Part shown: positions 3,052-16,688 of the stretch, piece after piece | Position numbering within the stretch: position 1 is the stretch's first letter | How the letters are laid out: each line of letters opens with the position of its first letter | Source: a virus | Length of the DNA stretch: 64,000 nucleotides | Direction: 5' to 3' (one strand) | Virus record (IMG/VR): IMGVR_UViG_3300045988_143931 | Span: 97,064-161,063 of that record | The notes under the pieces: generated by a model | Told to the model about the DNA's origin: nothing | Databases searched by the model: none | Seen by the model: only the letters and a program-made list of their open reading frames with translations | Translations under genes and position numbers: made by a program

Positions 3052-3366
3052 ATACAACAAGGAAAAAAATATTATAATCAAAATGATATTGCAAATGAAA
3101 TTCGTAATAGGATTGATTGTTCATCAATAGATGTACTTCGTGTACTTAATTCGTTAGGTGATGTGGTAAAGGATAAATTTAGTGATAGTGATGAATATGT
3201 TGAATTAAAAATATTTCCTGGACTAAAAGTAACTTCAAGATATATACCACTTGAACAATCTAAATCTAATCTTAATTTAAAAAATAATTCTATTTTATCT
3301 ATTACTTCAGTGTTCACTGATGATTTTCGTAAAAAAGTTAGAGAATTACATAATAATTTAGAATGA
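3052..3366 (+). CDS. HU/IHF-like DNA-binding protein with a probable non-canonical ATA start
   Basis: The tracked ORF (3163..3366) starts mid-domain. Upstream in the same frame, NDIANEIRNRIDCSSIDVLRVLNSLGDVV looks like HU helices 1-2. The frame is open only from 2992 and has no ATG, GTG or TTG before 3163. AGGAGG (3039-3044) lies 7 nt before ATA at 3052. Confidence 0.5.
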   Translation: MQQGKKYYNQNDIANEIRNRIDCSSIDVLRVLNSLGDVVKDKFSDSDEYVELKIFPGLKVTSRYIPLEQSKSNLNLKNNSILSITSVFTDDFRKKVRELHNNLE

Positions 3367-3496
3367 AATCAGCTTTTCTTAATATCCTGCCCTATAGGGG
3401 CATTACATAATATTAAAAGTTTATCTCATAAGCTAACCTCTCTTTCTTATATCGGTGGTTACATTATTTTGATAATGGTGTAATCACTGATACTCT

Positions 3497-3568
3497 TCCC
3501 ATATAGTTCAATGGTAGAGCAACGGACTGTTAATCCGTAAGTTACAGGTTCGAATCCTGTTGTGGGAG
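3497..3568 (+). tRNA. tRNA-Asn (anticodon GTT)
   Basis: Cloverleaf by eye. Acceptor tcccata/tgtggga (one G-U), anticodon loop ctGTTaa, T arm acaggTTCGAATcctgt. Confidence 0.9.
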
Positions 3569-3574
3569 TTATCC

Positions 3575-4395
3575 TATTTTTATAGGACTGGTCGGTTTCG
3601 GATCAGAGAATATTAAATTCTAAAATAAGCATGGTGACATGTATAAAGTGGTTCTTATCGCATTATAAGGCTGCGACTGTAGTGATACAGTTTGACGGAA
3701 AACACATAGGATTTATACCTAACCTAAAATCAGAGGGCTACTGCTAATGATATGGTTCGGTAGGTGTCATGAAAAAGGCACTGTTAATTAACACAGAAAT
3801 GTGGGGATAATCCGTGTATGGTTGGTGGAAATACCGCAAGTATAACTGCTAGTCATATTTTGGTAATATCTCTTAAGTTGAAAAACAGGGATAGAATCAA
3901 AAAGCAAGGAGATCGCAATCCAAGCAGGATGGTGATGATTGGGCGGTACTCAAAAGGTACTGATGGTCAAATATACACCTCATCGTCCAAAATTTAATTA
4001 CATACTTTTAAATTGGTCAAATAATAGAAAAGATAGATTATTTAAAGAAAATAACAAGCAAAAGTGTGTATGACCGCAAAGAGAAAAACAACTTATTGTC
4101 CTGTAATATGGACACATATAACACTCGCAAGGTGTTATGTGAGAAAGTACAAGTATATGCAACTCTAATAGGCTGCAACCTATGAATCTCGCAAGGAAGA
4201 ATGTGTAAAAAGAAAATCTATAATGCTTTGTGGTAAGAGTTTGCCAGTTATGTCAAAACTGGTGTTGTTGCTACCTACTGTCTAATCGACAGTGTGATAA
4301 ATTGTGTCCAACCGCAATAGATGGTAGTGTATTGAGTCAATATCTCAGCTCATATTAAGTAAGAGTCTCATACTTCGGTATGGGATTTTTTATTT
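3575..4395 (+). ncRNA. Large (about 0.8 kb) structured non-coding RNA candidate between two tRNAs, GOLLD/ROOL-like by context, class unassigned
   Basis: No ORF of 60 aa or more on either strand. G/C is visibly higher than in flanking genes. The motif CGCAA occurs six times within 480 nt (3835, 3914, 4075, 4126, 4190, 4313). One caps an 11-bp hairpin (4115-4141). The region ends in a UUCG-loop terminator. tRNA-Asn and tRNA-Pro flank it. Confidence 0.5.
4366..4395 (+). terminator. Rho-independent terminator closing the large ncRNA
   Basis: 8-bp stem tctcatac/gtatggga with a TTCG loop, followed by TTTTTATTTT. Confidence 0.75.
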
Positions 4396-4470
4396 TGGGA
4401 ATTAGTTCAGTTTGGTTAGAACGCCTGATTTGGGTTCAGGAGGTCGTGGGTTCAAATCCTACATTTCCAA
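4396..4470 (+). tRNA. tRNA-Pro (anticodon TGG)
   Basis: Acceptor tgggaat/atttcca (one G-U), anticodon stem cctga/tcagg with loop ttTGGgt, T arm gtgggTTCAAATcctac. Confidence 0.85.
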
Positions 4471-4508
4471 CTACTATTCTACTTTGTAGGAAATAAATCA
4501 AGAAAGAA

Positions 4509-4655
4509 GTGAAAATTATTAAGTACATTTCAAAAAATGAAATTGAAAAATTATTATTCGAAGGTGTAATTAGAAACACAAGACGAGGATATGTAGATCG
4601 CAGAGGCGAACATATTGGATATTACAAGACTTGCTTAAGTAGGTTCTGCTTATGA
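4509..4655 (+). CDS. Small hypothetical protein (48 aa, GTG start)
   Basis: Below the track's length cut-off. Translation VKIIKYISKNEIEKLLFEGVIRNTRRGYVDRRGEHIGYYKTCLSRFCL. Its stop overlaps the next ATG (ATGA). The SD is weak. Confidence 0.3.
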   Translation: MKIIKYISKNEIEKLLFEGVIRNTRRGYVDRRGEHIGYYKTCLSRFCL

Positions 4656-7837: not shown

Positions 7838-8884
7838 GTGAAAGGAAGTGATTTAGTGGCACATGTAACAAGGGTAAAATATTTTACCAAGGATAAGGAG
7901 AAATTCATAAATCCTGATAACTTGAAGAAATATAAAAAATATCTCCAATCAAATATTATAAAAAATCAGGATGTTAAAGATACAACATATAAAAGATATG
8001 AGGGATTGTTTCGTCATTTTCTTATGTGGCTAGGTGAAAACTATGGTGATTTAGATTTATATTCAAATGAGTTTATGGAGAATGCCGTTGATATTATGGA
8101 GAATTATATTATGTTCTGCCAGGAAATACTTCTGAATCATAAAAAGATTATCAACATGAAAATCTCTGCTATTAGTTCATTCTATATTTGGTCTATGAAA
8201 CGTGGTTTTGTTAAATACCATCCTTTTGATGGGAAACTTGATAGAATGAAGAAAGCTAATGAGGAACATATTTTAAATTCGTATTTCCTTACAGAAGAAC
8301 AAGTTCAGACAATCCGTAGAGAATTATCTGAAAATGATAAGTATTCAATTCAAGATCAAATTTTATTTGAAGTAAGTTTTGACTCAGCAAATAGAATTGG
8401 TGCATTGTTAAGATTGCAGTTATCCAAACTTGATTTAGAGAACAATATGTTTGTAGATATAAGGGAAAAAGAAGGATACCGTACACAGGTAGTTTTCGGG
8501 GATGTTGCAAAAGAGCTTATTCAAGAGTGGCTTGAAATGCGAAAGAATGATTATGACCACTTGGAATGTGATTCATTGTTGATCACAAAATACAATGGAG
8601 AATATAAACCTATGGGTGACAGTGCAATCAGAGATAGAATGAAGAAATATGGCGAAATTATTGGAATTTCTGACTATAGACCTCATTGCCAGCGTAAGAC
8701 TAGGCTAAATCTTGTATATGAGGAAACTGGTGATTTAGCATTAGCAGCCGAGCTTGCCAATCATCGATCCACTGAAACAACTAGAGAATTTTACTGCCGC
8801 AAGCAGACCAAAGCAGAGGTTATGAATAAAATCAATGCTCTAAGAAGCAAAAATTCTAATGTTGCTGACGAAGAGAATAAATAA
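7838..8884 (+). CDS. Tyrosine recombinase (XerC/D / phage-integrase family), second copy with no adjacent att site
   Basis: C-terminal catalytic pattern SANRIGAL (R) ... YRPHCQRKTR (H-x-x-R) ... ANHRSTETTREFY (H, Y). The start is probably GTG at 7856, after AAAGGAAG. Confidence 0.75.
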   Translation: MKGSDLVAHVTRVKYFTKDKEKFINPDNLKKYKKYLQSNIIKNQDVKDTTYKRYEGLFRHFLMWLGENYGDLDLYSNEFMENAVDIMENYIMFCQEILLNHKKIINMKISAISSFYIWSMKRGFVKYHPFDGKLDRMKKANEEHILNSYFLTEEQVQTIRRELSENDKYSIQDQILFEVSFDSANRIGALLRLQLSKLDLENNMFVDIREKEGYRTQVVFGDVAKELIQEWLEMRKNDYDHLECDSLLITKYNGEYKPMGDSAIRDRMKKYGEIIGISDYRPHCQRKTRLNLVYEETGDLALAAELANHRSTETTREFYCRKQTKAEVMNKINALRSKNSNVADEENK

Positions 8885-8950: not shown

Positions 8951-9598
8951 CTAACACTTCTTTTTATTCCAACACTTCTTCACATAACAACCAAATTTAA
9001 TAATTTTAACCCCTAGAATATCTATCCCTTTAATTATAATCTTAATAAGAAAAATAACTAAGAATACCTCTCCACATACAAATGCATATTTGTAGACCAT
9101 ACCTTCATTATTAAATAAAGCTGCAATTATAAATGACATATAAATAATTAGTCCATCTACTCCACAGAAAAATATGAACTTATCGTCTTTAGATGAATAC
9201 ATAACACTCTGTATAAAATTAGGTTCAAGATATCCTAATCTTCTGCGTAGATATGAATTTCTATCATATATGTTATTTTTGAAATTATTGTAGTTATATT
9301 TATTATGATTGTCTTTTAATATTATATATGTTTTATGAGTGGATCTGTCAATATATTTGATATTATAATCATTCATATAAGTTGATATATGATTTATAAT
9401 ATCATTTATAGTATTTTCGTTATATTCCTTATTATTGCTTAAAATTTTATACAAGGGATAATAAATTTGATTATATGCAATTTTCATATTATCTAATGGA
9501 ATATTCTTATTATAATTATATTTGGTTACAATAAAGGTAAATATACCTGTTATAAGTGCAGGAAGAATTATTTTTAATATTTCTATAAATGATTTCAT
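8951..9598 (-). CDS. Hypothetical membrane protein (moron-like, very AT-rich)
   Basis: 215 aa. One N-terminal and several C-terminal hydrophobic segments. It is an isolated minus-strand gene among plus-strand genes. Confidence 0.5.
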   Translation of the reverse strand: MKSFIEILKIILPALITGIFTFIVTKYNYNKNIPLDNMKIAYNQIYYPLYKILSNNKEYNENTINDIINHISTYMNDYNIKYIDRSTHKTYIILKDNHNKYNYNNFKNNIYDRNSYLRRRLGYLEPNFIQSVMYSSKDDKFIFFCGVDGLIIYMSFIIAALFNNEGMVYKYAFVCGEVFLVIFLIKIIIKGIDILGVKIIKFGCYVKKCWNKKKC

Positions 9599-9622
9599 AA
9601 TTTTACCTCATTATATTTTTAC

Positions 9623-9651
9623 TTGCATCAGCTAATTATATGTGTTACAAT
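9623..9651 (+). promoter_or_regulatory. Sigma-70/SigA-type promoter of a small antisense RNA
   Basis: TTGCAT (9623-9628), 17-bp spacer, extended -10 TGtTACAAT (9643-9651). Confidence 0.6.
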
Positions 9652-9657
9652 ACAAAC

Positions 9658-9775
9658 CAAAAGAAACAAGCAATTATCCGTTAGACGGTTGAGCCAATAT
9701 AATCAACAATGGCTAAATAAATATAATATTCAACACATTAATGACCGTGCTTTGGCGAGTGGCGGTCATTTTTGT
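9658..9775 (+). ncRNA. Small RNA (about 118 nt), candidate type I antitoxin antisense to the 3' end of the small ORF 9738..9866
   Basis: It runs from the promoter at 9623-9651 to a GC-rich hairpin (9741-9747 pairs with 9763-9769) followed by TTTTT (9770-9774). No ORF or SD. It overlaps the convergent peptide gene by about 37 nt. Confidence 0.45.
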
Positions 9776-9866
9776 GTTTATCAAGAACTCTAACTAGGTA
9801 TGTAGAGCAAATTCCGCTTACTATACCAGTTACTAATGTAAAAATTAGTAAACCACAAAATGTCAC
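9738..9866 (-). CDS. Small hydrophobic peptide (42 aa), type I toxin-like
   Basis: Not in the track because it is under 60 aa. AGGAGG (9879..9874), 7-nt spacer, GTG at 9866. Translation (M)TFCGLLIFTLVTGIVSGICSTYLVRVLDKHKNDRHSPKHGH has one TM helix and a charged tail. The 5' UTR segment UAUCCUC can pair with GAGGAUA and cover the SD. Confidence 0.5.
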   Translation of the reverse strand: MTFCGLLIFTLVTGIVSGICSTYLVRVLDKHKNDRHSPKHGH

Positions 9867-10390
9867 GTATTATCCTCCTTTGTAAGTATTTCCTACATGA
9901 TGTCACGAGGATATTTATATAACAGAACATCACTGCTCTGACGTGACTCAAACACCTAACCATCTCTATCTAGCCAAACAAAGATGTTTGAATAACCGCT
10001 TGTCCTTTACATTATAAATCATATGACATTTTCTGTCAAAATATTCCAAAAAAAGAGAATAATATAACATATAAATCAATCAGAGAATATAAAAGTATCT
10101 TAAAAAGAATTTCTTTTGTATGGGTTGAGTCTAATTTGATCCTAGTTTTCTTAATTCTATCGACATCTAGGATAATCGGTTAATTTCAACCTTAGAAATG
10201 AGAAGATGTTCGTGCCTCTCTGCGTTAATGAGAATCCTTAATTGACGGATAAGAGTCATTAAATCTTATCAATTGATCTTTACTCCGAAGACCGAAAATA
10301 TATAGAGAATAATCAGTAAGCATGGATACCTTGTGTGTCTTAGGGTACTTAGTTTGTACCTGAATAATAAAGTGGGTGATACCCACATTA

Positions 10391-10463
10391 GATCTGTTCG
10401 TCTAGTGGTCTAGGACATCGCCCTTTCACGGCGGCAACAGGAGTCCGAATCTCCTACAGATCA
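10391..10463 (+). tRNA. tRNA-Glu (anticodon TTC)
   Basis: Acceptor gatctgt/acagatc, anticodon loop ctTTCac, T arm aggagTCCGAATctcct. Confidence 0.85.
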
Positions 10464-10701
10464 TTATGCGGTAAACCTGATGTGAAAACCTATTTTTTGG
10501 ATGCATACGAAACTTAGGCGTGTAAGCTCAACACTTACTACCGCCCTTATGTTTTTTATAACTTTTTAGTTATTATAACAACATATTCTATTTAAACTTT
10601 TTCTTAGATATTTTCGATCAGCATATGGAGAGATATATAAAAAAAGTTGTTCAAATCCTTTTTTATTATGATATACTGTATATCAAAAAAGGAGAAAAAT
10701 T

Positions 10702-11406
10702 ATGGAAAATTTACTCAAAAAGTTTAATATATTTGATTTATTTACTATGCTTATTCCAGGTGTGATTATTTTAACTTTATCCTGTATTTCATTATCATTC
10801 GAATATTATGACAGGTGGACAAATTGGGAAAAGGAAAAATATGTAATCTTTTTTGTAATTAGTTACTTGTTAGGTATAGTTTTTCAACAGCTTGGAAATA
10901 TAGTTGATCAAAAATGGATATATAGACATGTATATGGTGGAAGCCCTAGAGAAATTTTTCTTTTAAAAGATAAATATATGAAAATACTAAATAATGAATT
11001 GGCTTATAAGGACGCATTAAATATAAAAAAGTATTTAATTGATTATTTTGATATAGATACCAAAAATATTAGAAATATTGAACAACAAAAGCAATTAAAC
11101 GCAAGAATATTTTCATATTGTTTAAACATTGTAGAAATAAATGGGTTATCATTCAAGGCTGATAAAATGCTTGTTATTTCTGAAATGAGTAGATCATTGT
11201 CGTTAGGGTTTATATCTATAATTTTATTAAATCTGCTTATGATTCTATTTTTTCATTTTCATTATGTATTTTTTCTTATGGAAAATATTATATTATTATT
11301 TTTAGCTTATATATTTTTTGATAGAAAAAAACAATATGAAAAGTATAGATATATAATTATTTTACGAATGTTTTCAATATATATGAGAGATAAAGAAATT
11401 AAATAA
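10702..11406 (+). CDS. Hypothetical multi-pass membrane protein (moron-like)
   Basis: 234 aa, very AT-rich, with hydrophobic N- and C-terminal regions. SD is AAAGGAG. An extended -10 (TGATATACT) lies upstream. Confidence 0.55.
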   Translation: MENLLKKFNIFDLFTMLIPGVIILTLSCISLSFEYYDRWTNWEKEKYVIFFVISYLLGIVFQQLGNIVDQKWIYRHVYGGSPREIFLLKDKYMKILNNELAYKDALNIKKYLIDYFDIDTKNIRNIEQQKQLNARIFSYCLNIVEINGLSFKADKMLVISEMSRSLSLGFISIILLNLLMILFFHFHYVFFLMENIILLFLAYIFFDRKKQYEKYRYIIILRMFSIYMRDKEIK

Positions 11407-11537: not shown

Positions 11538-11542
11538 CTCAT

Positions 11543-11626
11543 GCCGTGTGTCCGATTGGTCGAGGGTGCTGTCTTGAAAACAGTCTGGATGTAAAAGTCT
11601 TTAGGGTTCGAATCCCTAACACGGCG
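11543..11626 (+). tRNA. tRNA-Ser (anticodon TGA), type II
   Basis: Acceptor gccgtgt/acacggc, anticodon stem gctgt/acagt with loop ctTGAaa, long variable arm, T arm tagggTTCGAATcccta. Confidence 0.75.
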
Positions 11627-11674
11627 TTCTAAATAAATTGCACTTTCATTGGAAATTTAATATTGGAAATTATG

Positions 11675-11725: not shown

Positions 11726-13051
11726 GTGGTCGTTAGTTTGGCTACGACAAAAGAGACACAGCCTACAAAATTAACGGCTGCACAATTAAAGAAGAAAATT
11801 GAAACACAGGAAGAGAAAATCAAGTCACTTAAAGAGGGTGCTTGGTGTTACATGTGTGATACTCATAAAGCTAAAGATAAATTTTATGTAAGTACAGATC
11901 CTATGAGTAAAAGTGGTCTTACTCCAATTTGTAAAGACTGTGCAAAAAAGATAGCCCTTAAAATTGGGAAGGACAAGGTTGAACATGAGCCTGATAAGAA
12001 CTCTGTAATCGAAACAATGAGGTATCTTAATAAGCCTTTTTTGTCAAAATTATGGGATGCTAGTATTCAAGAATCGGAAAATTTAGCTTTAGGCAAAGTT
12101 CGTTCTAATGGTTATTATTCATATATAAAGAATGTGGCTATGGGACAATATAACACCATGACATTTAAAGATTCGGATATTTTTGATAATCACGCAGTCG
12201 AGGACGAGACACCAAAGGAACAAACAACCGAGGAGGAACTTATTGAGTCTCACGCAGGATTGGATACATATGATAGTTTCTTAAAAAATAAGAATGATGT
12301 TATTCGATTACTCAGCTATGATCCTTTTGAAAAAGAGGATATAGCCGACCAACCATTTTTATATTCTCAGTTATTAGGTCTATTAGATTCTAGTGAAGAT
12401 GCAAATGAAGACATGATGCGTACCTCTTCCGCTATCTCTATTGTTCGTGGATTCTTACAACAATCTAAAATTGATGATACCATATCAAAATTAATGTGTG
12501 ATATTTCTAATATTGAACGCAATTCTGCAACAATTAAATCCCTACAAGAAAGTAAAGGAAAAATAACTTCGGTCATTACAAGTCTTGCTCAAGACAGTTG
12601 TATTTCATTAAAGCACAATAAAAATGCTAAAAAAGGTGAAAATACTTGGACTGGTAAAATCAAAAAAATTAAGAGTCTTAACCTACGAAGTGGTGAAGTC
12701 AATGGTTTTGACATTGATACTTGTAGAGGTATGCAACAAGTTCAGGAAATTAGCGATGCTTCTATTATGAAGCAATTGGCACTTGACGAATCTGAATGGT
12801 CAGATATGGTTTCTGAAATGCGTGTTGTAAATACTGGTCTTCGTAAAGAAAAGGATGCTTATCAAGAAATTAATAGAATCTTATTGAGAGAAAATCTTGA
12901 TTTGAGGGATACATTAAAAGAAAATAATTTACTAAACGAAGAACAGTTAAAAGATTTAAAAGATGTTTATTCTGTTTTTGCGGAATTTGACGAAGAGAAA
13001 GAATCTCCTGATGAAGAATCAAAGGAGGTTGTTGAAAATGAATCAGAATAA
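11726..13051 (+). CDS. Zn-finger protein in the small-terminase position (function uncertain)
   Basis: 441 aa, directly upstream of and overlapping terL. CYMCD...CKDC pair, acidic C-terminus. The start is GTG 11726 or TTG 11738, near AGGAGG. Confidence 0.35.
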   Translation: MVVSLATTKETQPTKLTAAQLKKKIETQEEKIKSLKEGAWCYMCDTHKAKDKFYVSTDPMSKSGLTPICKDCAKKIALKIGKDKVEHEPDKNSVIETMRYLNKPFLSKLWDASIQESENLALGKVRSNGYYSYIKNVAMGQYNTMTFKDSDIFDNHAVEDETPKEQTTEEELIESHAGLDTYDSFLKNKNDVIRLLSYDPFEKEDIADQPFLYSQLLGLLDSSEDANEDMMRTSSAISIVRGFLQQSKIDDTISKLMCDISNIERNSATIKSLQESKGKITSVITSLAQDSCISLKHNKNAKKGENTWTGKIKKIKSLNLRSGEVNGFDIDTCRGMQQVQEISDASIMKQLALDESEWSDMVSEMRVVNTGLRKEKDAYQEINRILLRENLDLRDTLKENNLLNEEQLKDLKDVYSVFAEFDEEKESPDEESKEVVENESE

Positions 13052-15092
13052 ACAAATGATTATGAATTACTATCAGAATGAAATTCTTGATTATGATAAG
13101 GATTTTTATAATCAATACGGAATATATGTAAAACCACATGGTTACTCTATTTCTTCTCGTAAAATTGAATCTTATATTCAAATCGCTGAAATCCAAAAAT
13201 ATCTGCAATGCAACCCAGTAAAAGCTATAGATCTCTTTTTCAATATAGAGCTTTTAGATGGGCAAGCACTTCTTGTACAAAGAAGTTGGGTTTGCCCAAA
13301 TGTACTTGCAGTATGTACTCGTGGATATGGTAAAAGTACAGTTATTGACCTTGAGATTATGTCTAAAGATATGTGTTTTTGTAATGTATGGACATATATT
13401 GCAAGCGGTACAGGTGGTCAGGCTGAACAAACTTTCACTACTTTGGAACGACTTGCCAATGATAACATTGATACATTTTACGGTTCAACTGGTTCTTTAT
13501 TTAAGAACGAGATTGAAATTAAAAATGCAGCAGGTGATGGATTTTCACACTCGTCCAATGGTTTTTCCTATTCATGTTATAACGGATCTATGACTAGGAC
13601 ATTGAACGGAAATATAGATGCAAAAAGAGGTATGCGAGGAACAGTAATTTTTGACGAAAGTGGTTTCTTGTCTGATGAAATGATGAATGTATATGGTGCA
13701 TTCGCTGTTGTAAATAAAAGTTTAAAAACTGGTAAAGATATTGATGGTAATTCAATTGATCCTATCCGTCAAAGATGCTTACCAAGAGATTTATCTTATC
13801 AAAAATATTATATTAGTTCTGCTTCGTCAACAGATACACAATTTTGGAGATTATATAGAGATTTTTCAAAACAGCAGATTATGGGAAATCCTGACTATTG
13901 TGTATTGCATATAGATTGTGAACAAGCATTTAAACCAACTCTTAGAGGAGAATTAGTCACTCCTCTTCTATCTCGTAATACGGTTGAATCCGAAATGAGA
14001 ACAAATCCAGAAAAAGCTAGGCGTGAGTATTATTGTATTTTTACTACAGATGCTGGTACTGACGCAATTATTCGTAGAGGTGTTATTACACGTAACGAAG
14101 AAACTAGAAAACCACTTCTATATAACGATACAGGTGATAAAAAATTCGTCATCACATATGATCCTGCTAGAAGTCGAGATAATTCAGTCATTCTTGTTGG
14201 AGAAATTTATGAATACGAACAGGTAGACGGAAGCATTGATACAAGAATGAGATTGGTAAACTGTATTAATCTTATTGATGTTGGTAAAAAAATCAAATCT
14301 CCTATGCAGACACCAGATCAGATTGAATATTTAAAAAAAGTAATTCTTGATTATAACGGTGGAGCTGACGCATATGGAAATATTGTTGGTGTATACATTG
14401 ATGCAGGTAGCGGTGGATCTGGTGTTAATATAGCTGATTATTTAATGCCAGATTGGACAGACTCTGCTGGCATTGTTCATAGAGGCTTAATAGATAAAGA
14501 ATACTCTGCCGATTATGTTAAGAAATTTCCAAATGCAGTAGACAAAGTACATCTTATGTCCCCTGCTGGTTACAAATCTGAAATGTATGAAGCAATGATA
14601 GAATTGATGAATCAGGATAAAATCAGTTTTACAGCACAATATGACCATAAAGGCTATCTCACTGTTTTTGATGTTGATGAGAAAAAATTGGCTAAAGAAA
14701 AAGAACGAATTTCTGCTGAACTCAGAAAACAAAAAGTTAATGAAAAGGAATTTGAAACTAAGCTCAATGAAGAATTAGAGAAAATTGAATCCGTTAATAC
14801 AAAAACTATAAAACTTGATTGGCAGGATGAAATTGCTCTTGCTAACATTGATGCTTTAAAAGAAGAACTTGTAAATATGGTTCGTAAGAAAAGAGATTCT
14901 GGAAAAGATTCATTTGAACTTACGCCTGAAAAAGCCAATAAGCTCCACGATGATCGTGCGTATACGGCGTGTATGGCTTCTTACGCCCTCATGTGTGAAC
15001 GTAGAAAAGCTATTACAAATAGAAAACGTCCAACCGAAGATGCCACAAGTTTCATAAATAAACTTACAATTCGTAAAGCAAAATACAATTAA
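13038..15092 (+). CDS. terL: Terminase large subunit
   Basis: ATG at 13038 after AAGGAGG (the tracked ORF starts earlier at 12963). Walker A-like CTRGYGKST, Walker B-like VIFDESGF. The C-terminal nuclease-like block has YIDAGSGGSG. Confidence 0.85.
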   Translation: MNQNKQMIMNYYQNEILDYDKDFYNQYGIYVKPHGYSISSRKIESYIQIAEIQKYLQCNPVKAIDLFFNIELLDGQALLVQRSWVCPNVLAVCTRGYGKSTVIDLEIMSKDMCFCNVWTYIASGTGGQAEQTFTTLERLANDNIDTFYGSTGSLFKNEIEIKNAAGDGFSHSSNGFSYSCYNGSMTRTLNGNIDAKRGMRGTVIFDESGFLSDEMMNVYGAFAVVNKSLKTGKDIDGNSIDPIRQRCLPRDLSYQKYYISSASSTDTQFWRLYRDFSKQQIMGNPDYCVLHIDCEQAFKPTLRGELVTPLLSRNTVESEMRTNPEKARREYYCIFTTDAGTDAIIRRGVITRNEETRKPLLYNDTGDKKFVITYDPARSRDNSVILVGEIYEYEQVDGSIDTRMRLVNCINLIDVGKKIKSPMQTPDQIEYLKKVILDYNGGADAYGNIVGVYIDAGSGGSGVNIADYLMPDWTDSAGIVHRGLIDKEYSADYVKKFPNAVDKVHLMSPAGYKSEMYEAMIELMNQDKISFTAQYDHKGYLTVFDVDEKKLAKEKERISAELRKQKVNEKEFETKLNEELEKIESVNTKTIKLDWQDEIALANIDALKEELVNMVRKKRDSGKDSFELTPEKANKLHDDRAYTACMASYALMCERRKAITNRKRPTEDATSFINKLTIRKAKYN

Positions 15093-15110: not shown

Positions 15111-16688
15111 ATGCCAAGACCTAAGAAAGTAGATGCAAATTCTAATGCACCTGCTAAAATAAATAATTCACAGAAGAAAACCACTTCTTCTACTCCAAAA
15201 CAGCCAACCACAAATGAAATGCGTGAATGGTATGAGAAAAATAAAAGTAGACTTGAACATTATGAAGACGCAACAAGTGCAATTACAAGTCTTCGAGACA
15301 TTCAGAAATCATCCAGATATACGTCAATCAGTAACTACTCAAAGGAAGATGTAAAAACATACATAAAGAATATCTCTTCTAATGAAAAGAATCTACGAAG
15401 CTTATCTCGTTATCTTTATTATCGTTCAGAAATCTATTATCGTCTTTGTAAATATTATGCAAATCAGATTGATCTGACAATTCGTAATATAGTTCCCCCT
15501 TTTATAATCTCAGGTGAAAACGATATACAATCCACTTTACAAAAGTATCAAGAAACAGTTGATATAGTTGACACTCTAGGATTGAATTATGAATTTCGTA
15601 AAGCTGCGTCTATCACTTTAAGAGAAGATGTATTTTATGGATGTGCTTATTATACAGAAGGACAAGGAATGTTTGTTCTTCCATTAGATCCAGATTATAT
15701 GAAAATAGCAGGTATGTTTCCTGATGGTTCATTTGCAGGAGCTATGGATATGAGTTATTTCCGTAGTCATCAGGAACTTCTTGAATATTGGGGAGAGCCA
15801 TTCAATAGTATGTGGAACACATATCAGAGCACAAATGAAAAATATCAGCTAATTCCAGAAGAATATAATGTATGTATTAAATTTAGGTCTGAAGACTGGG
15901 AAACCATCGTTCCCGTGCTTACACCTATATTTTTATCATTGATTGATCTTATGGACGCTTCTGATTATCAAGCAGTTCAACAGGCAGCTAATATTTATAA
16001 ATTAGTGTGGCTTGAAATGAAGACAATGGGTAATGATGTAGATGATTGGGCTGTAAATCCAGATATAATGATTCAATATTTTAATCGTATGCTTGAAGAA
16101 GCTTTACCACCTTATATCTCTGCTGCTATTGTTCCTGGTGAATTACATGAAATTAGTTTCCCAGATGATGCTACTGGTGATGTAACAAAGGTTGAAAAAG
16201 CAACAAAAGAAATTCTTAATACGGCTGGTGGTGCTCAGATATTAAATTTAAACTCCGCTTCTAACTCTACTGCCTTTACATATGGCGTACTTGCAGATTC
16301 TACATTTTCTATTTCAACTCTTATTCCACAGATTCAAGCGATTGTAAATCGACTTTTATCTAGTTGGATATCTGAACCTTGTAAAGTTAAATTCTTTGAT
16401 GTTTCTATTTATCAGAAGGATGATTTTAAAAAATCAATCTTGGAATCATGCACTAATGGATTACCAAACAAAATTCTTTATAACACATTGAATGGTGTGT
16501 CTGAAAAAGATACGTTATCTATGAACTTTTTGGAAGAAGACTGTTTGCAACTTAGTTCAAAATTCAAACCACTATCTAGCACTTATACTCAGACAGGTAA
16601 TAATAAAGGCGGTGGTCAAGAGAAGGATGATTCGGAACTTACAGATGCTGGGCTTCGTACAAGAGACGAGAATTTAAATGATAAATAG
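15111..16688 (+). CDS. Portal protein
   Basis: 525 aa, immediately after terL. Size and position are typical. Acidic C-terminal tail. Confidence 0.7.
   Translation: MPRPKKVDANSNAPAKINNSQKKTTSSTPKQPTTNEMREWYEKNKSRLEHYEDATSAITSLRDIQKSSRYTSISNYSKEDVKTYIKNISSNEKNLRSLSRYLYYRSEIYYRLCKYYANQIDLTIRNIVPPFIISGENDIQSTLQKYQETVDIVDTLGLNYEFRKAASITLREDVFYGCAYYTEGQGMFVLPLDPDYMKIAGMFPDGSFAGAMDMSYFRSHQELLEYWGEPFNSMWNTYQSTNEKYQLIPEEYNVCIKFRSEDWETIVPVLTPIFLSLIDLMDASDYQAVQQAANIYKLVWLEMKTMGNDVDDWAVNPDIMIQYFNRMLEEALPPYISAAIVPGELHEISFPDDATGDVTKVEKATKEILNTAGGAQILNLNSASNSTAFTYGVLADSTFSISTLIPQIQAIVNRLLSSWISEPCKVKFFDVSIYQKDDFKKSILESCTNGLPNKILYNTLNGVSEKDTLSMNFLEEDCLQLSSKFKPLSSTYTQTGNNKGGGQEKDDSELTDAGLRTRDENLNDK

Follow-up and report, generated by a model that had tools for sequence, protein, structure and literature searches.

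A GOLLD-family RNA below the Rfam cut-off in the tRNA array of a gut-phage lineage

Introduction

Few natural RNAs have been shown to form cages free of protein; GOLLD is one of them. Published GOLLD RNAs are homo-oligomeric cages, the subunits of which consist of a conserved 3' domain and a variable 5' domain with a disordered internal linker, and they are found in phage tRNA arrays (PMC12286853, PMC12990946). Solved examples include a 14-mer of env-38 (PDB 9MEE) and a 12-mer of Streptococcus agalactiae (PDB 9L0R); the 3' domain of the latter alone assembles into a 10-mer (PMC12286853, PMC12990946). Subunits are held together by GNRA/A-minor contacts and by a self-complementary GC in loop L21a, and the copy number varies with the peripheral helices (PMC12286853, PMC12990946). 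Encapsulation, tRNA storage and ribosome binding have been put forward as roles (PMC12286853, PMC12990946). According to a thesis as cited by PMC12286853, GOLLD expression rises in lytic growth of a Lactobacillus brevis prophage.

Here we describe a region of a 64,000-nucleotide stretch of viral DNA (hereafter the window; positions 97,064 to 161,063 of IMG/VR record IMGVR_UViG_3300045988_143931), which an earlier note, made from the sequence alone, had assigned to the GOLLD/ROOL class of large RNAs as a member or an analogue.

Results

An ORF-free region between two tRNA genes

The region spans positions 3575-4395 and is set among the following genes.

3496-3569, + strand: tRNA-Asn (GTT), detected by ARAGORN and by Rfam (tRNA, 72.4 bits); it ends 18 nt before the first GOLLD helix
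4396-4471, + strand: tRNA-Pro (TGG), detected by ARAGORN and Rfam, directly 3' of the terminator
7838-8884: integrase, phage gene encoded in the window
12963-15092: terminase, phage gene encoded in the window
15111-16688: portal protein, phage gene encoded in the window

The bracketing by tRNA-Asn(gtt) and tRNA-Pro(tgg) had been recognised in the earlier note, as had the lack of any ORF of at least 60 aa on either strand over about 820 nt; both observations hold, the longest ORF being 59 aa (3818-3997, + strand). The region is also richer in G+C than its neighbours, as claimed (0.35-0.37, vs 0.25-0.27 over 1 kb on the upstream side and 0.30-0.33 downstream). On the + strand it folds far better than shuffled sequence (MFE z-score -5.3). 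The terminase, portal protein and integrase genes place it in a phage, beside tRNA genes, as is typical of GOLLD.

Two other parts of the window drew attention. About 790 nt at 9600-10390 have no ORF of at least 60 aa, end at a tRNA-Glu (10391), fold with a z-score of -4.9 on the + strand and match no Rfam family at E <= 0.1; they may represent a further structured RNA, or no more than promoters and small genes. The segment at 11542-11627 is tRNA-Ser(tga) according to ARAGORN, and its best Rfam model is tRNA-Sec (37.2 bits, cut-off 47); a tRNA-Ser with a long arm is the probable identity.

The 3' half matches the GOLLD model over its full length

Positions 3400-4600 were scanned by E-value against all 4227 Rfam families. 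The GOLLD model (RF02032) matches 3927-4351 on the + strand with 100.3 bits and an E-value of 7e-27 (cmscan), and the alignment covers model positions 1-416 of 416. The 3' half of the RNA is homologous to the Rfam GOLLD model across the entire model, and the match is significant at the threshold used by Kretsch et al. (E <= 1e-5; PMC12286853). The score lies under the curated gathering cut-off of RF02032, which is 150 bits, and GOLLD is consequently absent from a default (gathering-mode) Rfam scan of the window, which lists tRNAs only.

The earlier note had proposed a scan with the GOLLD, ROOL, HEARO, OLE and raiA models. GOLLD alone matched; ROOL, OLE, HEARO and raiA gave no match on 3400-4600 even at E <= 10. 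The class assignment thus stands for GOLLD, whereas identity with ROOL (RF03087) is rejected.

The GOLLD signature, comprising the UCAAAAG loop, AGCAAAAGU, a CGCAA loop, GUG-GAUAA and AUCUCAGC, is present, and the motifs UCAAAAG, AGCAAAAGU, CUCGCAAGG, GUGUGAUAA and AUCUCAGC all fall within the cmscan alignment. Among 28 relatives, UCAAAAG, AGCAAAAGU, CUCGCAAGG and the CGCAA loop are fully or almost fully invariant, and GUGUGAUAA and AUCUCAGC are conserved at some positions only. The helix order of the model is retained in the cmscan alignment with one exception: the three-way junction lacks its outer helix (model positions 215-219 with 280-284; window 4144-4148 with 4217-4221), the strands of which are mismatched. 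The inner junction helix fits better one register over from the Rfam alignment.

Two structured domains joined by a variable linker

The core of the RNA is 765 nt long, or 826 nt when counted from tRNA to terminator. Its elements are as follows.

3571-3587, + strand: hairpin UCCUAU/AUAGGA in the short spacer that separates the tRNA from the RNA core, kept in relatives with compensatory changes (alignment columns 27-40)
3588-3926, + strand: GOLLD 5' domain (339 nt, 17 helices)
3588-3606, + strand: 5'-terminal hairpin of the 5' domain with a GGUUUCG loop, followed by AUAA
3629-3642, + strand: GUGA (GNRA) hairpin of the 5' domain, after AUAA and before AUAAAG
3704-3713 with 3809-3817, + strand: helix closing the multi-branch core of the 5' domain
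3819-3855, + strand: C(GCAA)G hairpin of the 5' domain
3877-3886, + strand: hairpin of the 5' domain with an invariant GAAA loop
3908-3921, + strand: GAUNGCAA loop of the 5' domain
3927-3988, + strand: opening hairpin of the conserved 3' region, probably P14 (Rfam model positions 1-63); its helices 18-19 are 99% paired, with 10 covarying pairs
3950-3956, + strand: UCAAAAG loop, residues invariant in 28 sequences
3998-4071, + strand: linker region, with an AU-rich variable part at ~4010-4059 (~50 nt)
3998-4009 with 4060-4071, + strand: predicted helix closing the linker (UACAUACUUUU with AAAAGUGUGUA; helix 20, 90.7% paired, little covariation)
4057-4065, + strand: GOLLD signature AGCAAAAGU, on the 3' strand of the linker-closing helix
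4073-4352, + strand: GOLLD 3' core (Rfam model positions 148-416); helices 21-31 are 93-100% paired, with 2-6 covarying pairs each
4073-4081 with 4226-4234, + strand: long-range helix of the 3' core
4097-4114, + strand: hairpin of the 3' core
4115-4141, + strand: CGCAA hairpin of the 3' core
4156-4207, + strand: three-way junction of the 3' core with two hairpins, one with a CUGCAA loop and one with a C(GCAA)G loop at 4187-4197
4243-4263, + strand: hairpin of the 3' core
4270-4328, + strand: branched helix of the 3' core
4333-4352, + strand: terminal hairpin of the 3' core with AUCUCAGC

The 5' and 3' structured halves are joined by a hypervariable, AU-rich linker, the length and sequence of which differ in every lineage (alignment columns 548-676). 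As in GOLLD, this linker aligns to an unstructured part of the Rfam model; its variable stretch (~4010-4059) is the counterpart of the linker that is disordered inside solved cages. In its total size, and in having a large structured 5' domain that is conserved less well than the 3' domain, the RNA agrees with GOLLD RNAs of ~700-850 nt.

Covariation supports both domains

The earlier note had also suggested an alignment of homologues and an assessment of covariation. Alignment A2 comprises 28 non-redundant full-length copies, all from gut-phage contigs and all scoring below the cut-off (85-104 bits), and pairs were counted on the RNAalifold structure after removal of long-range pairs joining invariant columns. 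The whole RNA features 213 pairs in 32 helices, which are 96.3% paired (n=28), and 129 compensatory pairs, vs 30-39 in controls with a slide of 1-3 columns; the observed values were not reached in any of 500 shuffles. For the 5' domain alone (3588-3926, 21 sequences), 98 pairs are 96.2% paired and 68 are compensatory, vs 15-21 in slid controls. Helices 18-31 of the 3' domain are 93-100% paired with 2-6 compensatory pairs each, with the exception of helix 20 (90.7%), and covariation extends to the 3' domain helices of the GOLLD model other than the unformed outer junction helix. Invariant G-U pairs are numerous (for instance, columns 313-332, 490-541 and 865-886), which establishes the + strand as the RNA strand.

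Four long-range pairings drawn by RNAalifold were dropped, since all involve invariant columns and hence have no support from covariation. These are 3623-3628 with the T-run of the terminator, GACGG 3694-3698 with 4265-4269, AAAC 3700-3703 with GUUU 4239-4242, and ACUU 4091-4094 with AAGU 4151-4154. Kissing-loop covariation is published for GOLLD; in this clade, inspection by eye of the hairpin loop 4102-4109 against the beginning of the linker revealed none.

Half of the CGCAA motifs are GNRA tetraloops

The pentamer CGCAA occurs on the + strand at 3835, 3914, 4075, 4126, 4190 and 4313. The earlier note had counted these six copies in about 480 nt and judged that well under one would be expected. 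Arithmetic from the window-wide counts yields an expectation of ~0.2 per 483 nt of one strand and a Poisson probability of ~1e-7 for six, so the cluster is very unlikely to be due to chance. Window-wide, the pentamer is not enriched (53 matches on both strands vs a shuffle mean of 44.8).

The copies at 3835, 4126 and 4190 form C(GCAA)G hairpins with a GNRA tetraloop, the GCAA core of which is invariant in 28/28 sequences; in the same alignment the leading C at 4190 is nearly invariant only. The copy at 3914 is part of the conserved 8-nt loop GAUNGCAA, in which most relatives have A instead of C. Those at 4075 and 4313 are helix strands, variable among relatives, and are chance occurrences. An additional GCAA lies within the CUGCAA loop of the junction hairpin (4173-4178), where G4175 and C4176 are invariant.

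Smaller features described from the letters were likewise recovered. The 9-nt sequence CTCGCAAGG is repeated exactly at 4124-4132 and 4188-4196. The 11-bp hairpin said to be capped by CGCAA pairs 4115-4124 with 4132-4141, its eleventh pair being U4125-G4131 or C4126-G4131, and the second CGCAA described as capping ATAC/GTAT lies between arms at 3831-3834 and 3840-3843.

tRNA, RNA, terminator and tRNA in one array

Two further elements flank the RNA core.

3450-3492, + strand: perfect 19-bp hairpin immediately upstream of tRNA-Asn (MFE -22.2 kcal/mol, z -7.2)
4366-4395, + strand: intrinsic terminator with an 8-bp stem and UUCG loop, followed by UUUUUUAUUUU, directly before tRNA-Pro (terminator scan)

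The 8-bp UUCG-loop terminator had been noticed before at the end of the region, and is borne out by a stem at 4366-4385 and a T-run to 4395, after which tRNA-Pro begins. Its stem (helix 32) covaries in relatives at 5/8 pairs. The arrangement recurs in the clade: counting near-duplicates, in 34/44 loci the RNA is preceded, at a distance of 6-19 nt, by a tRNA on the same strand (Asn or Met), and in 37/44 another tRNA on that strand (Pro, Lys, Thr, Ile, Asn or Phe) begins 34-43 nt past the 3' core, directly after the terminator.

tRNA-Asn is probably co-transcribed with GOLLD. From the gene arrangement, the two would be made as one co-transcript, the GOLLD 5' end would be released by 3' processing of the tRNA, and the 3' end would be set by the terminator. 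Matches in a scan for sigma-70 promoters were no commoner than in shuffled DNA, and tRNA-Asn had none upstream of it. In contigs L003, L027 and L057 the first tRNA is preceded by hairpins that share the flanks of that at 3450-3492 (TCGGTGG...CACTGATA) and have other stems. The hairpin at 3450-3492 may signal where the tRNA/GOLLD transcription unit begins, or may serve in processing or regulation of the tRNA array, and it may lie outside the RNA itself.

tRNA genes occur inside the GOLLD linker of L108 (2206-2276) and L112 (10969-11041), as reported for mycobacterial GOLLDs, and the tRNA-rich regions of phage contigs with divergent GOLLDs also contain tmRNA genes (L140 3113-3417, L164 3945-4302 and L112 8016-8390).

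Relatives form a graded series

A blastn search of 3575-4395 against 50,697 GenBank phage records gave no match. In MT835469, the sole related GenBank phage record, the upstream gene is matched and the RNA is not. Through the 955-aa protein encoded upstream, 76 viral contigs were gathered, 14 of which carry a homologue of the RNA with 78-95% identity. Further members were obtained by a scan of viral contigs with the pattern AGCAAAAGT...CGCAAGG.

Against RF02032, the present lineage scores 85-104 bits (L078, L181, L110, L100, L104, L084 and L124) and more distant members score 70-77 bits (L140, L164 and L112). The same pattern scan yielded GOLLDs that pass the cut-off, at 203-256 bits (L080, L098, L165, L108, L184 and L185). 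The graded scores (70-104, 203 and 227-256 bits) thus describe a continuum across lineages, of which this lineage occupies a part below the cut-off.

A covariance model, R1, was built from the first 107 of the 326 positions of the 5' domain. R1 matches L184 (33.1 bits) and L185 (29.9 bits); both matches lie right behind a tRNA, ~300-400 nt upstream of 3' domains that pass the cut-off (229.8 and 226.6 bits, respectively). It also matches L140, L183, L099 and L112, which are distant lineages. Canonical and distant GOLLDs thus have the beginning of the 5' domain in common, as a trait of the family. R1 found no match at E <= 1 in the Lactobacillales-type GOLLDs L080, L098, L165 and L108. By eye, Lactobacillales-type GOLLDs share AUAA, a GNRA hairpin and an AAAG element, a resemblance that we do not count as a test.

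A clade-specific pattern is present in three metagenome-assembled genomes labelled Ruminococcus, Lachnospira and Kineothrix. Binning is weak evidence of host; the hosts are probably gut Clostridia (genomes of Lachnospiraceae or Ruminococcus).

GOLLD is an accessory cassette

The RNA is missing from very close relatives of this phage and is hence an accessory cassette. In L002, L003 and L004, the 955-aa protein is 100% identical to that of the window, yet the RNA is not there: the site is occupied by one different tRNA in L002 and L004, and by 380 nt of other sequence and a tRNA in L003. L009, L011, L013 and L016 feature an ORF and AT-rich DNA. The junction AATCAGCTTTTCTT, which follows a small gene ending at 3366 (window 3366-3495; same site in L002-L016), is a cassette hotspot.

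Two contigs carry altered forms. In L057 (9440-9500, aligned to window 3496-3790), a shared 9-mer, ACTGTTAAT, joins the 5' half of tRNA-Asn to the GOLLD 5' domain near window position 3783; ~215 nt of the RNA are lost in this deletion variant. In L027 (IMGVR_UViG_3300044856_000241, 9529-11137), the same site holds the first ~43 nt of the GOLLD 5' end and the rest of GOLLD is missing. The remnant consists of two hairpins, and over 39 nt it shows 90% identity with the beginning of the L078 GOLLD. It runs directly into a HEARO/IsrB omega-RNA (9571-9786; RF02033, 88.6 bits, cut-off 83), which is followed by two ORFs. At that junction intact GOLLDs read ...ACGU|AUAAAG, with AUAAAG almost invariant. 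Given the remnant that abuts the omega-RNA and the intact form of the junction, an IS200/605-type element seems to have landed in, or replaced, the GOLLD gene, and its guide would be a GOLLD hairpin; this is a single locus.

Discussion

We assign a probability of about 0.85 to the reading that a GOLLD-family RNA of ~770-826 nt, belonging to a phage of gut Clostridia, is encoded on the + strand at ~3570/3588-4395. The assignment is specific to GOLLD because of the full-length match to RF02032, the covariation, the 5' module shared with other GOLLDs, the phage setting and the exclusion of other families. The locus is a genuine and conserved GOLLD, and it represents a lineage of gut phages left out by the Rfam cut-off; for this window alone, it is the identification of a known kind of RNA and not a discovery.

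It is very unlikely that the RNA belongs to a separate large phage family that merely resembles GOLLD, by convergence or through a shared sub-module. Such an origin would fit the score under the Rfam cut-off, the missing model helix and the failure of blastn and nhmmer to link the RNA to Lactobacillales-type GOLLDs, but not the end-to-end model coverage at E 7e-27 with equal helix order and signature loops, nor the stepwise rise of scores from 70-104 through 203 to 227-256 bits across lineages, nor a 5'-terminal module in common with GOLLDs that pass the cut-off. No better are the odds that a decaying, non-functional GOLLD remnant is being carried in the tRNA array. Although the low score, the truncated variant in L057 and the dispensability of a cassette absent from near-identical phages are all what decay would leave, the 28 diverged copies keep 96% of pair cells together with 129 compensatory pairs and invariant loops, which points to purifying selection on structure, not to decay.

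The chances are slimmer still that the region is a long structured spacer or leader serving only tRNA processing or operon regulation, or that it codes for small proteins. tRNAs do abut both ends and ORFs of 38-59 aa are present; however, the size, the two-domain architecture and the Rfam homology favour a stand-alone RNA, which moreover has its own terminator upstream of tRNA-Pro, and among relatives indels are not multiples of three and substitutions track base-pairing rather than codons. Least probable of all is ROOL, the other nanocage-forming phage RNA: its genomic setting is of the same kind, but the scan of 3400-4600 with all 4227 Rfam families gave no match to it at E <= 10.

By analogy with the solved structures, the GOLLD of the window most likely self-assembles into a multimeric, protein-free RNA cage. 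The transcript would fold into a 5' 'cap' and a 3' 'ring' domain, and assembly without protein would give a closed dihedral homo-oligomer of ~10-14 copies, in which GNRA/A-minor contacts and kissing loops may hold the subunits together and the linker may point into the cavity. The copy number of such a cage is not predictable here, since solved GOLLDs differ (10, 12 or 14). As for function, we would guess, from the tRNA linkage alone, that the cage acts on the translation or tRNA machinery in lytic growth, sequestering or protecting tRNAs or ribosome-associated factors.

A more tentative proposal, which we consider doubtful as a whole, is that the gut-Clostridia clade is a distinct GOLLD subfamily with an altered three-way junction and its own 5' cap architecture. 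Given these two differences, the copy number or the interfaces of its cage might differ from those of the solved 10-, 12- and 14-mers. As part of the same proposal, the order tRNA-GOLLD-terminator-tRNA, which is nearly obligatory, would reflect functional coupling (co-transcription, processing-dependent release, tRNA storage or protection) and not mere co-location.

Since a whole human-gut phage lineage scores under the Rfam cut-off, current annotation undercounts GOLLD, and the lineage is useful for extending the family model. Its dozens of diverged sequences, which covary richly in the 5' as well as the 3' domain, can be compared with the solved structures in terms of universal inter-subunit contacts. 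The existence of near-identical phages with and without the cassette makes their fitness comparable, a possible route to function.

Among the systems to which the locus may be compared, ROOL (RF03087) is likewise a large RNA of phages or prophages, located near tRNAs and forming a cage of RNA alone, although its sequence and fold are unrelated and it has no match at 3400-4600. Mycobacterium GOLLDs (Morgado et al. 2020, as cited in PMC12990946) are also found in a tRNA array on a mobile element; by that account theirs can hold tRNA in the linker, whereas the ~50-nt linker of the window has none. The RNA of the window differs from the canonical GOLLDs fetched in its score (100 vs 203-256 bits), and from the GOLLD model in that its three-way junction lacks the outer helix and in that the hairpin at 4276-4294 has a UAAUC loop where the model has a GAAA-like one. 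Its hosts are probably gut Clostridia, and not Lactobacillales, lake bacteria or mycobacteria as in known GOLLDs. Homo-oligomeric cages of 10-14 copies have been published for the env-38 and S. agalactiae GOLLDs only. With the env-38 and S. agalactiae GOLLDs it has in common the order of the 3' helices, the signature loops, a variable linker, a less conserved 5' domain and a size of ~0.8 kb. The likeness to env-38 extends to the phage tRNA array, as env-38 also follows a tRNA (tRNA-Met), and, judging from position, the 5' GAAA hairpin (3877-3886) and the junction loop with an invariant GC may correspond to L11a and L21a.
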